DNA of 64,000 nt. Source: Candidatus Marinacidobacterium sp. (GTDB lineage: Bacteria; Acidobacteriota; Vicinamibacteria; Marinacidobacterales; Marinacidobacteraceae). Below are positions 54,145 to 55,743 of this stretch, piece by piece (position 1 is the stretch's first letter; each line of letters begins with the position of its first letter). The stretch covers positions 2,368,001 to 2,432,000 of the forward strand of contig OZ244852.1 in NCBI GenBank assembly GCA_965220965.1, given 5' to 3'. A model generated the notes under the pieces. It had not been told where the DNA came from, did not search any database, and worked only from the letters and a program-made list of their open reading frames with translations. The translations under genes were made by a program, and so were the position numbers.

Positions 54145-55743
54145 ATGACTCCCAGGCTCCGCTCCAAGACCGACCCCGACATCGTCTTCATCGACAAGGA
54201 CTCGGCGGCGCGCGTTCTTCACAACGGGGAGGACTTCCTCGAGGAGCACCTGCCGGTCGGCACGCGGGTGATCTACCCGCCGCCCCCGATCCGCGGCCTT
54301 CCGAATCCGAGGGGGGCGATCCGCCACGCGCTGAACCATCCGCTCGGGTGCGATCCGCTCCACGCCCAGCTTCGGCCGGGGATGCGGGTCACCATCGCGC
54401 TCGACGACATCAGCCTTCCGCTCCCGCCGATGGCCACGCCGGATGTCCGGCAGACGGCGCTCGAGGTCGTGCTCGAGCTGCTCTCGGACCACGGCGTGGA
54501 CGATGTCCACCTGGTGATCGCCAACTCGCTCCACCGAAAGATGACCGAGGCCGAGATGCGGCGGATGGTGGGACCGGACATCCACAAGGCGTTCTATCCC
54601 TCGCGCTACTACAACCACGACGCCGAAGACCCCCGGGGCATCGTCGCCATCGGAGAGACGCGCCACCACGAGCCGGTGCGGGTGAACCGGCGCGCCGCCG
54701 AGAGCGACCTGGTCATCTACCTGAACATCAACCTGGTCCCGATGGACGGCGGCCACAAGTCGGTCACCGTCGGCCTCTGCGACTACCAGAGTCTTCGCCC
54801 CCACCACGAACCCCAGACGATCCGCGACTCGGACGGCTACATGGACCCCGCCCGCTCCGCGCTGAGCCACAAGGTGGACCGGATGGGCAAGCTGGTGGAC
54901 GAGCACATGAACGTCTTCCACATCGAGACGGTGCTCAACAACCGCATGTATGCGGACCCGCTCTCGTTCCTGGCGAAGAACGAGGACGACTTCACCGATC
55001 TCGACCGCGTGAAGCTGGCGGCGACGCGCTGGACGCTGGGGAAGCTGCCGCCCGCCGCGAAACGGAACTTCCTCCACCGGGTCCCCGGGGCGTTCGAGCT
55101 GATCGGCTGCTACGCCGGCCGCACCGAACCGGTGCATGAACGCACCCTCGCCCGCTCGTTCGAGCAGTACGCGGTTCCGGTGAAGGGCCAGTGCGACATC
55201 CTGCTGTCCGGGATCCCCTACATCTCCCCGTACAACGTGAACTCGATCCTGAACCCGCTGCTGGTCCAGGTCATGGGGCCCGGGTACCTGTTCAACCTCT
55301 ACCGCGGCAAACCGCTCGTGCGGAAGGGCGGCGCCCTGATCCTGGTCCACCCCTGCCGGGACGAGTTCGACCCGCTGTTCCATCCGAGCTACATCGAGTT
55401 CTTCCACCGGCTGCTTCCCGAGACCCGGGATCCCTTCGTGCTCCGGGAGCGGTATGAGGAGGAGTTCGCGAACAACCCCTCCTACGTCCAGATGTACCGC
55501 GACGGGAACGCGTACCACGGGGCCCACCCGTTCTTCATGTGGTACTGGGGCGAGAACGGCCGGCAGCACGTGGGCCGGATCATCGTGGCCGGCGCCGAAA
55601 ACCAGCACGTTCCCGAGATCCTGGGGTGGGAGCGCGCCGACACCGTGACCGAGGCGATCGCCATGGCGCGCAGCGAACTTGGCCAGTCCGCCAGCGTCTC
55701 GCTGCTCCATGTGCCGCCGATCATGATCCCCGAGGTCTCCTGA
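54145..55743 (+). CDS. Lactate-racemase (LarA)-domain protein, ElbC-like
   Basis: [33 protein letters not shown]...PHH; operonic position between the HAD and the megaenzyme. Confidence 0.75.

Follow-up and report, generated by a model that had tools for sequence, protein, structure and literature searches.

In Myxococcus xanthus, ether lipids are made through an operon with the gene order elbB-elbC-elbD-elbE, in which elbC codes for what has been called 'a protein of unknown function' (PMC9131029). According to the same source, elbD is required for these lipids and the ether sits at sn-1 of an ordinary glycerol 3-phosphate backbone, while disruption of the gene for alkylglycerone-phosphate synthase (AGPS), the flavin adenine dinucleotide (FAD) enzyme responsible for the ether bond of the animal pathway and of a second myxobacterial pathway (PDB 4BBY, 2UUU), leaves ether lipids only slightly lower; the AGPS gene of M. 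xanthus lies in an operon with its own reductase-acyltransferase protein. The ElbD pathway yields ether lipids despite a disrupted AGPS gene, with 'no apparent AGPS candidate' (PMC9131029; preprint 10.1101/2025.10.10.681575), and ether-bond formation in this main aerobic bacterial route has been an open question since 2014. Here we analysed a 64,000-nucleotide stretch of Candidatus Marinacidobacterium sp. of the phylum Acidobacteriota (contig OZ244852.1, positions 2,368,001 to 2,432,000), called the window throughout, in which the gene at 54145-55743 is elbC of the bacterial ether-lipid operon elbB-elbC-elbD-elbE, as follows from its place downstream of the HAD gene elbB and upstream of elbD with its four domains. 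It shares with M. xanthus elbC (Lorenzen et al. 2014, via PMC9131029) the place between elbB and elbD, with elbE after them, and the orthology of the two is drawn from 32 Myxococcota genomes, whose 51-70% identical homologues mostly lie beside ElbD, rather than from the M. xanthus protein itself.

The second body of prior knowledge concerns LarA, the lactate racemase that depends on the nickel-pincer nucleotide, a cofactor whose known chemistry is the abstraction of a hydride from the carbon of a C-OH group, with a histidine as base, and the return of that hydride. Family members with only one of the two catalytic histidines have been described: groups 14 and 15 'lack' His174, group 17 has Asn there (PMC12611868, section 2.1), and LarAH14 of Frankia, a group 14 protein, showed no activity on the hydroxy acids tried (PMC7583248, table). 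That one-histidine homologues may do other chemistry has been suggested in general terms (PMC7583248, PMC12611868, PMC13524815). A precedent for a non-racemase is NphT (Semersky et al. 2026, PMC13524815), which tethers the nickel-pincer cofactor, has a His/Lys motif and shuttles hydride between molecules, and whose authors state that one-histidine LarA homologues might also catalyse hydride transfer; unlike ElbC, NphT has an aldo-keto-reductase fold, and PMC13524815, in which the words 'lipid' and 'ether' do not occur, draws no link to lipids.

Both the LarA family and the elb operon are therefore known, whereas a link between ElbC or ether lipids and LarA or the nickel-pincer cofactor was not found in the literature searched (the 2014 operon paper lay outside the search); new here are the co-occurrence counts and the complementarity with AGPS. 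Together, our data make it probable that ElbC is a nickel-pincer, non-racemising enzyme working in the ElbD pathway. That it does the job of AGPS in this pathway is the overall best explanation, to which we give not quite an even chance. The observations behind these readings are the predicted fold, the residue pattern, the presence of the cofactor genes, the obligate pairing with ElbD and the AGPS complementarity. An earlier note, made by eye from the DNA alone, had already described a LarA-family protein in a lipid operon, and the open reading frame, the Lar_N and NF052592 matches, the fold and the neighbours elbB, elbD and elbE all agree with this description.

A one-histidine LarA-family protein

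The start of elbC at ATG 54145 is backed by homologues of 531-532 residues that align over 100% of their length; an alternative GTG start at 53902 gives a longer frame, but one that runs into the HAD gene upstream. The sole Pfam match of the protein is Lar_N on residues 45-225 (124.5 bits, cut-off 23.3, E 4.3e-36), and the NCBIfam equivalog NF052592, named 'NPN-dependent hydroxyacid isomerase, LarAH14/15/16 family' by NCBI, reaches 820.2 bits (cut-off 740) over profile positions 2-519 of 520. The name 'LarAH15' is also used in PMC11770544 for a Phytophthora gluconate epimerase, evidently not group 15 of the NCBIfam name. All characterised NCBIfam equivalogs (lactate or malate racemase, LarAH10) stayed below their cut-offs, with 66.8-88 bits against 460-540, the lactate racemase model scoring 66.8 bits against 460. 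A phmmer search of PDB sequences with ElbC returned LarA-type chains (best E 4.7e-37); taken together, these matches are far above chance. Furthermore, a word-indexed protein search gave 4885 proteins at E <=1e-10 among 8000 scored candidates, the best 120 of which are 68-91% identical to ElbC, mostly 531-541 residues long and labelled as metagenome-assembled genomes (MAGs) of Vicinamibacteria, Pyrinomonadaceae, Gemmatimonadaceae, Acidobacteriota and Deltaproteobacteria. An exhaustive search of cluster representatives yielded 2688 matches at E 0.001, 1106 at 1e-10 and 372 at 1e-30, the distant ones coming from MAGs and annotated as 'lactate racemase domain-containing protein', 'hypothetical' or 'transcriptional regulator'.

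An AlphaFold2 model built on an alignment of 56 homologues (mean predicted local distance difference test 95.3, predicted template modelling (TM) score 0.93) gives ElbC the two-domain LarA fold. Comparison by Foldseek and VIA-align placed first chain 9q3k_A, the cofactor-loaded one-histidine LarA of Streptococcus plurextorum (LarA_Sp; TM 0.86, Z 41.7, root-mean-square deviation 2.0 A over 452 residues, 26% identity), followed by 9q3j, LarA of Blautia wexlerae (LarA_Bw, Z 38.1). The canonical LarA-type racemases stand behind these one-histidine entries at Z 28.6-32.3, with Foldseek TM values of 0.71-0.78 for LarA_Lp and LarA_Ip. Overall, eleven LarA-type entries span Z 41.7 to 28.6, and the first unrelated fold appears at Z 6.

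Active-site residues were mapped through three alignments, namely phmmer, a 26-homologue profile against PDB sequences, and hhalign to the canonical LarA of the same genome, with LarA numbered as in L. plantarum. The translation contains the strings DDISLP (87-92), ANSLHR (126-131) and GGHKS...RPHH (202-221), the last of which spaces K205 and H221 by 16 residues, the same distance as K184 and H200 in LarA; the motifs and this spacing had been picked out in the earlier note, and its by-eye mapping, with K184, H200, H108 and D72 kept and H174 and R75 lost, was confirmed by the profile alignments (Table 1). D88, H130, K205 and H221 likewise pair with Asp73, His115, Lys195 and His211 of LarA_Sp, and counting along chain 9q2u reproduces the published Asp73, Lys76, His115, Asn185, Lys195 and His211. 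The source numbers the nickel ligand of LarA_Sp both His211 and, elsewhere, His221 (PMC12611868); the chain count gives 211, which is Lys195 plus 16.

The loss of H174 can be refined in that its position aligns with Asn196. That Asn196 replaces H174 is the better-supported reading of the alignments, the placement of this loop not being certain, and in direct alignment to LarA_Sp its Asn185 meets V198 of ElbC or a loop insertion. The stretch around K298 is deleted in ElbC by hhalign to the canonical LarA, in a region of that alignment with lower confidence. Y363 and H461 pair with Tyr307 and His401 of LarA_Sp in the alignment, the position of His306 is Pro362, and Lys76 has no basic counterpart; in the LarA_Sp structure Tyr307, His401, His115 and His306 adjoin an unidentified ligand (PMC12611868, section 2.4). 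Because both the second catalytic histidine and the carboxylate-binding Arg/Lys are missing, ElbC is unlikely to be an ordinary 2-hydroxy-acid racemase, as had been supposed before.

Conservation of the ligand set was examined in 56 full-length homologues selected by length and single-stretch coverage, not by residues. The complete set of H130, K205 and H221 occurs in 26 of the 56, which are 28-78% identical to ElbC; exactly two of the residues are found in no homologue, exactly one in nine and none in 21, and this all-or-none retention is the pattern that a joint cofactor site predicts. D88 accompanies the set in 26/26 homologues and N196 in 18/26. A second alignment holds these 26 sequences, and the invariance of H130, K205 and H221 in it is by construction; its other invariant columns, which the selection did not impose, are D87, R131, S206, H331, Y363, N370, P371, Y381, H413, Y416, Y451 and H461. 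Two distant ElbC-type proteins from the genome samples described below (35% and 48% identity) retain the three ligands and all of these columns, and the His/Lys/His set is present in every examined ElbC-type protein that lies beside ElbD or co-occurs with it. Ligand-losing, full-length ElbC-like proteins are 27-46% identical to ElbC (e.g., P0127, P0130, P0140 and P0145); P0127 has none of the three residues at 46% identity. Such proteins may be cofactor-less paralogues or pseudoenzymes.

Compared with lactate racemase, ElbC shares the two-domain fold (Z 29-31), counterparts of D72, H108, K184 and H200, and larB, larC and larE in the genome, and differs in the exchange of H174 for Asn, in the missing R75 and K298, and in being about 100 residues longer. 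LarA_Sp and LarA_Bw (Gatreddi et al. 2025, PMC12611868) come closer, with about 500 residues, the cofactor Lys, the nickel His, the Asp and one catalytic His; the second catalytic His is replaced in both and in ElbC, and none of them has an assigned function. However, identity is just 23-26%, Lys76 is missing from ElbC, His306 corresponds to Pro362, and the Asn185 of LarA_Sp and the loop Asn of ElbC differ in position in direct alignment. ElbC also falls under another NCBIfam model (LarAH14/15/16) than LarA_Sp and LarA_Bw, whose genes lie beside carbohydrate genes, whereas the context of ElbC is lipid (elbB, elbD, elbE).

Genomes with elbC: cofactor genes, ElbD and AGPS

The source genome (3.25 Mb in two contigs, 94% complete) contains larB (271.5 bits, cut-off 175), larC (388.6 bits) and larE (264.1 bits, cut-off 150), all above their cut-offs. 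They lie at C1:1,687,278, C1:369,721 and C1:690,718, scattered and unlinked to the operon, which is consistent with the earlier remark that the window (C1:2,368,001-2,432,000) holds none of them. A second Lar_N protein of this genome, encoded outside the window at C1:1730647-1731924 (L001:1480-2757, forward strand), is a canonical LarA of 425 residues: it has the Asp/Arg motif, both catalytic histidines, the Lys, the nickel His and the Phe-Phe loop that lactate racemases typically show. At least two possible clients of the cofactor genes are thus present.

Among 41 relatives from the same genus to the same order, the source genome included, the ElbC orthologue, larB and larE are present in 41/41 and larC in 39/41, the two genomes without a larC match being 91% and 73% complete. 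ElbC is the only Lar_N match in six of them (G025, G027, G029, G031, G033, G039), where larB and larE are found in 6/6 and larC in 5/6 (5/5, 5/5 and 4/5 without the unpublished G033). Two broader samples covered the phylum of the window with 151 Acidobacteriota genomes of at least 90% completeness, and Myxococcota, the phylum of genome G191 (locus L041, in a record titled Myxococcales), with 101 genomes. A full-length ElbC-type match occurs in 16 of the 151 Acidobacteriota, one of them split by a stop, and larC accompanies it in 16/16 (15/15 without the unpublished G088), compared with 93/135 of the others. In Myxococcota, 32/101 genomes encode a full-length ElbC-type protein (51-70% identity), and larC is present in all 32, in 48/48 genomes with any Lar_N match, in 13/13 where ElbC is the only Lar_N match, and in 20/53 without Lar_N. 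Fisher tests of the co-occurrence gave p values from 1e-7 to 6e-3, which overstate the association since related genomes are not independent. The expectation that elbC genomes carry the cofactor genes was borne out by larB, larC and larE in the source genome and by larC in every ElbC genome of both samples. We regard this co-occurrence as moderately telling rather than decisive, because larBCE are common without ElbC and other LarA clients exist.

A 1.8-Mb genome of the Myxococcota sample (G287) stands apart: its sole ElbC match is a C-terminal fragment with three stops (C1:875304-875972), its larC match carries two stops (C1:576892-578022), and no ElbD was found; in this reduced genome, the client and the gene for its cofactor may have decayed together. 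G035 (C34:225443-225973) and G037 (C17:38010-38516), two of the relatives, each have a second, weak Lar_N match (59-67 bits, in open reading frames of 439-467 residues) that shares a contig with elbC at a distance of about 9 kb, and similar weak matches in frames of about 425 residues occur in several Myxococcota genomes.

The gene order around elbC was compared in the best 80 of 593 confirmed relatives in species-representative genomes (66-92% identity), retrieved by a peptide pattern with GG[HW]KS, so that the Lys is present by construction. Their records are labelled Acidobacteria and Candidatus Marinacidobacterium (87-92%), Pyrinomonadaceae, Blastocatellia, Chloracidobacterium, Myxococcales, Gemmatimonadaceae and, once, Clostridia. 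Of the 62 loci with at least 3 kb of downstream sequence (18 shorter loci were excluded), 58 have an ElbD homologue after elbC and in the same orientation, with an elbC-elbD gap of at most 300 nucleotides in 33 of the 58; an ElbB homologue precedes elbC on the same strand in 67/70 loci with at least 1.5 kb upstream, and in 37/47 loci elbD is followed by an ElbE homologue no more than 3 kb away. The order B-C-D is kept across records of Acidobacteriota, Myxococcales and Gemmatimonadaceae, and ElbC is the best conserved of the proteins compared, with a median identity of 69% against 63% for ElbB and 49% for ElbD. Two genomes have a broken elbC but an intact elbD, split over two overlapping frames in G002 (C1:3108998-3110592) and interrupted by a TAA in G096 (C3:469473-471045), either of which may be a frameshift or sequencing error or a pseudogene. 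The Clostridia record, a MAG titled 'uncultured Clostridia bacterium' (L087), has an elbB-elbC-elbD locus with a 67% identical ElbC; an ether-lipid cluster of the aerobic type is unexpected in such a host, and the label may be a binning or labelling error.

Pairing with ElbD is obligate in both phylum samples. In Myxococcota, full-length ElbD (query about 10-1430 of 1459) occurs in the same 32 genomes as ElbC, two of the matches being cut by contig ends, and in 0/69 of the others, whose matches are partial and cover the adenylation domain only; elbC and elbD are mostly adjacent on one contig. In Acidobacteriota, 23 genomes encode a full-length ElbD-like protein, including 16/16 ElbC-type genomes, and seven have it with no ElbC-type match (G136, G181, G148, G124, G072, G055 and G171). 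ElbC is accordingly never found without ElbD, and a divergent ElbD-like group occurs without ElbC.

These seven genomes led to AGPS. About 1 kb downstream of its ElbD-like gene, G148, which has no elbC, encodes a FAD_binding_4/FAD-oxidase_C protein of 586 residues that matches mammalian AGPS (4bby) at E 7.2e-160 and 536 bits, compared with about 80 bits for D-lactate dehydrogenases, identifying it, by sequence, as a true AGPS. With this protein as query (E <=1e-60), an AGPS homologue (64-100% identity) was detected in 7/7 acidobacterial ElbD-like genomes without ElbC, and in 1/16 ElbC-type genomes (G161, 46% identity; 1/15 without the unpublished G088). The same search found no AGPS in the source genome, in two tested genomes with neither ElbC nor an ElbD-like gene, or in ten of the 32 Myxococcota ElbC genomes, picked across the identity range. 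Three genomes whose ElbD-like protein is only 33-35% identical to that of the window, hence as divergent as in the AGPS-bearing group, and which do have an ElbC-type protein, also gave no AGPS match, so the split tracks ElbC rather than ElbD divergence alone. Overall, ElbC and AGPS almost never occur together in acidobacterial genomes that bear ElbD, which suggests that ElbC may supply the AGPS-like ether-forming step, a possibility we place somewhat short of even. In the ElbC-less G181 and G124, a frame of 545-554 residues immediately upstream of the ElbD-like gene was considered as a hidden ElbC and rejected, as it has no Pfam match and does not resemble the ElbC profile (hhalign probability 0.9%). 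At three ElbC-less loci other than that of G148 (L092, L093 and L094), a PALP-family pyridoxal-phosphate enzyme adjoins the ElbD-like gene.

The operon and its surroundings

The elb genes of the window lie on one strand and are flanked by further lipid genes (Table 1). The ElbD-like protein combines fatty-acyl reductase, adenylating enzyme, carrier protein and acyltransferase domains. The frame of elbE is open from 59943, and its start is likely ATG 60144, 17 nucleotides past the elbD stop, as judged from the sequence. The FabH-like neighbour is retained in the closest relatives only.

Table 1. Positions of the genes and codons discussed, numbered in the window unless a genome or locus is named; residue roles are those of the aligned LarA positions.
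Feature	Position	Strand	Basis or remark
FabH-like 3-oxoacyl-acyl-carrier-protein synthase III, divergent from the operon	52175-53251	-	Pfam ACP_syn_III, ACP_syn_III_C
elbB-like, HAD-family phosphohydrolase, 38 nucleotides upstream of elbC	53351-54106	+	Pfam HAD, E 5e-35
elbC, LarA-family (LarAH14/15/16) protein, 532 residues plus stop	54145-55743	+	Open reading frame, Pfam, NCBIfam, AlphaFold2 model
Asp88 codon, aligned with LarA D72 (cofactor ribose contact)	54406-54408	+	Profile alignments to 6c1w/5huq and 9q2u
Leu91 codon, at the LarA R75 position (carboxylate and phosphate binding)	54415-54417	+	Profile alignment
His130 codon, aligned with catalytic LarA H108 (LarA_Sp His115)	54532-54534	+	Alignments
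Asn196 codon, placed at the second catalytic His position (LarA H174)	54730-54732	+	hmmsearch to 2yjg, 6d6z and 6c1w; hhalign
Lys205 codon (GGHKS), aligned with cofactor-tethering LarA K184 (LarA_Sp Lys195)	54757-54759	+	Alignments
His221 codon, aligned with nickel-binding LarA H200 (LarA_Sp His211)	54805-54807	+	Alignments
elbD-like, 1459 residues, starts 4 nucleotides past the elbC stop	55748-60127	+	Pfam NAD_binding_4, AMP-binding, PP-binding, Acyltransferase
elbE-like, NAD-dependent epimerase/dehydratase (SDR)	60144-61178	+	Pfam Epimerase, E 6e-23
Diacylglycerol-kinase-family lipid kinase (YegS-like), convergent with the operon	61218-62234	-	Pfam DAGK_cat, YegS_C
CDP-alcohol phosphatidyltransferase (head-group transfer)	62351-63094	+	Pfam CDP-OH_P_transf, E 2e-16
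AGPS gene of G148	L090:13199-14956 (G148:C1:3127198-3128955)		FAD_binding_4, FAD-oxidase_C

Directly past the lipid genes begins a gene for an AAA_21/AAA_23/SMC_N-type P-loop ATPase (63186-63998, forward strand), which continues beyond the window. On the other side, a row of genes on the reverse strand (42634-49288) comprises two N6_N4_Mtase DNA methylases of 338 and 902 residues and a ResIII helicase-type gene of 998 residues and looks like a restriction-modification module; it lies upstream of an AHSA1/SRPBCC protein (49438-49986) and a DUF255 thioredoxin-domain protein (50026-52110).

Proposed role of ElbC and its alternatives

Within the cluster, candidates can be named for all steps of an ether-lipid pathway of the animal type: the adenylation, carrier and reductase domains of ElbD may activate the fatty acid and reduce it to the alcohol or aldehyde, its acyltransferase domain may acylate glycerol or glycerone phosphate, ElbE may carry out keto reduction, ElbB dephosphorylation and the CDP-alcohol transferase head-group transfer. 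The ether-forming exchange has no candidate in the cluster except ElbC, which we put forward for this step as the protein that is left over, is best conserved, never occurs without ElbD and yields to AGPS. In its specific form, our proposal is that ElbC is a nickel-pincer alkyl-ether synthase, a non-orthologous replacement of AGPS that works through a borrowed and returned hydride, which is tentative and, in our judgement, leans to the doubtful side. With AGPS itself ElbC would share function alone, as there is no relationship in sequence or fold and the cofactors differ (FAD versus nickel-pincer nucleotide).

Cofactor loading, the substrate and every chemical step are what we infer from these comparisons. 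Judging from the aligned residues, ElbC most likely carries the nickel-pincer nucleotide, tethered by Lys205 and with the nickel completed by His221; this cofactor would be made by the products of the unlinked larB, larC and larE. With one acid/base histidine (His130) and no carboxylate-binding Arg/Lys, ElbC should not invert a 2-hydroxy acid, and it may instead use the hidden redox capacity of the cofactor on a glycerol-phosphate lipid precursor. His130 would accept a proton and the cofactor a hydride from the C-OH of the substrate, and the transient carbonyl would be either 1-acyl-glycerone phosphate, with 1-acylglycerol 3-phosphate as its precursor, or a fatty aldehyde derived from the fatty alcohol that ElbD makes; C-O exchange would then form the alkyl ether, and the hydride would return from the same side, in a stereo-retentive manner. 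By a first route, the acyl group of bound 1-acyl-glycerone phosphate would be swapped for a fatty alcohol, as in AGPS, and hydride return would give 1-O-alkylglycerol 3-phosphate. By a second route, the fatty alcohol would be oxidised to the aldehyde, form a hemiacetal with a glycerol hydroxyl, lose water and receive the hydride. ElbC might also cover the reductase step that follows AGPS. A further option would be a covalent adduct at the pyridinium C4, which is thinkable given the 340-nm species and the covalent ligand in LarA_Sp. The AGPS mechanism involves a flavin adduct, to which such a pyridinium adduct would be analogous. Of the two roles named in the earlier note, ether formation gains support from the AGPS complementarity, and backbone epimerisation fits a single catalytic histidine poorly; its suggestion of new chemistry for the cofactor stands in so far as the proposed reaction has no precedent, the general idea of non-racemising one-histidine homologues being already in print.

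Several points weigh against ElbC as the ether-forming nickel-pincer enzyme. The proposed chemistry is without precedent for the cofactor, no experiment on any ElbC was found in the accessible literature, and the insertions reported for M. xanthus hit elbA, elbB, elbD and elbE, not elbC (PMC9131029). Ligand geometry was judged via alignments alone, and the Arg/Lys that binds the cofactor phosphate (R75 of LarA, K76 of LarA_Sp) is absent. larBCE are frequent without ElbC (larC in 93/135 and 20/53, as above), the source genome and most relatives hold a canonical two-histidine LarA that needs the cofactor anyway, and the flanks of 91 fetched loci contained no larB, larC or larE (tblastn, E 1e-8). 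As to AGPS, the pattern rests on about seven families with the ElbC-type protein and five without, hence on few independent events; the ElbD-like proteins of the seven ElbC-less genomes form a divergent group, 32-34% identical to ElbD of the window; AGPS adjoins the ElbD-like gene in only one of these seven; G161 carries an AGPS-like gene in addition to ElbC; and M. xanthus reportedly combines the elb and the AGPS system (PMC9131029). Finally, a preprint on sponge symbionts describes elb-like clusters of Poribacteria with elbD and elbB only; its accessible text nowhere mentions elbC or LarA.

A nickel-pincer ElbC could also catalyse a redox-neutral step of the ElbD pathway other than ether formation, such as an NphT-like hydride shuttle between the fatty alcohol/aldehyde pair and a keto intermediate, re-reduction of alkyl-glycerone phosphate or isomerisation of an intermediate through the move of a hydride to a neighbouring carbon. 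All evidence for cofactor use and for the ElbD link fits this equally well, and adjacent-site or intermolecular hydride transfer has been proposed for one-histidine LarA homologues (PMC7583248, PMC13524815). By itself it leaves the mutual replacement of ElbC and AGPS (7/7 versus 1/16) unexplained, however, and the operon already has two candidates for NAD(P)-type reductases, the N-terminal domain of ElbD and ElbE; we consider it unlikely.

A role without the nickel cofactor, with ElbC as a scaffold or partner subunit of ElbD or with its His and Lys serving another ligand, is improbable. Mar2 and LarA_Bw were purified without cofactor according to the accessible reports, the phosphate-binding Arg/Lys is missing in ElbC, and the homologues with none (21/56) or one (9/56) of the ligands indicate that the fold can persist without them. 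Against this stand the block-wise retention or loss of the His/Lys/His set and its presence in every examined ElbD-associated ElbC, the larC counts where ElbC is the only LarA-type client (13/13, versus 20/53 with no client), and the stop codons in both the ElbC and the larC match of G287.

Returning to a cofactor-loaded ElbC, true inversion of a stereocentre, which the NCBIfam name 'NPN-dependent hydroxyacid isomerase' would imply, seems quite improbable. Its substrates might be sn-glycerol 3-/1-phosphate, 2-hydroxy fatty acids or sugar acids, and the second acid/base would be a residue other than histidine. All LarA homologues of known activity are racemases or epimerases in the accessible surveys (PMC11770544, PMC7583248), and the invariant H331, H413, H461, Y363 and Y416 of the C-terminal domain could act as second base; yet H174 is exchanged for Asn, R75 and K298 have no counterpart, the lactate racemase model scores far below its cut-off (66.8 bits versus 460), the group 14 protein was inactive on the hydroxy acids tried, and no inversion is needed for the M. 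xanthus lipids, with their ether at sn-1 of a normal glycerol 3-phosphate backbone (PMC9131029). That elbC is unrelated to ether lipids and owes its linkage to elbD to chance or to some other shared regulation, e.g., as a carbohydrate-phosphate enzyme, is very improbable: the closest solved relatives do have genes of glycolysis and sugar transport as neighbours (PMC12611868, section 2.6), but the B-C-D order is conserved across Acidobacteriota, Myxococcales and Gemmatimonadaceae, and the dependence of ElbC on ElbD is complete in both phyla and two-way in Myxococcota (32/32, 0/69).

Even if the assignment of ElbC to the ether-forming step were wrong, the function of this conserved LarA homologue with a single catalytic histidine would still merit study. 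If it is right, the reaction of ElbC would be the first in the LarA family that is not of the racemase type, and it would extend the chemistry of a cofactor that is so far known, in the LarA fold, only from the inversion of 2-hydroxy acids. ElbC would also be the first nickel enzyme of membrane-lipid synthesis, adding nickel to the requirements of this process, and would explain AGPS-free ether lipids in Myxococcota, Acidobacteriota and other aerobes. In addition, ether-lipid producers, including the soil and sponge Acidobacteriota, whose ether lipids serve as environmental proxies, could be recognised in genomes more sharply by elbC than by elbD alone.

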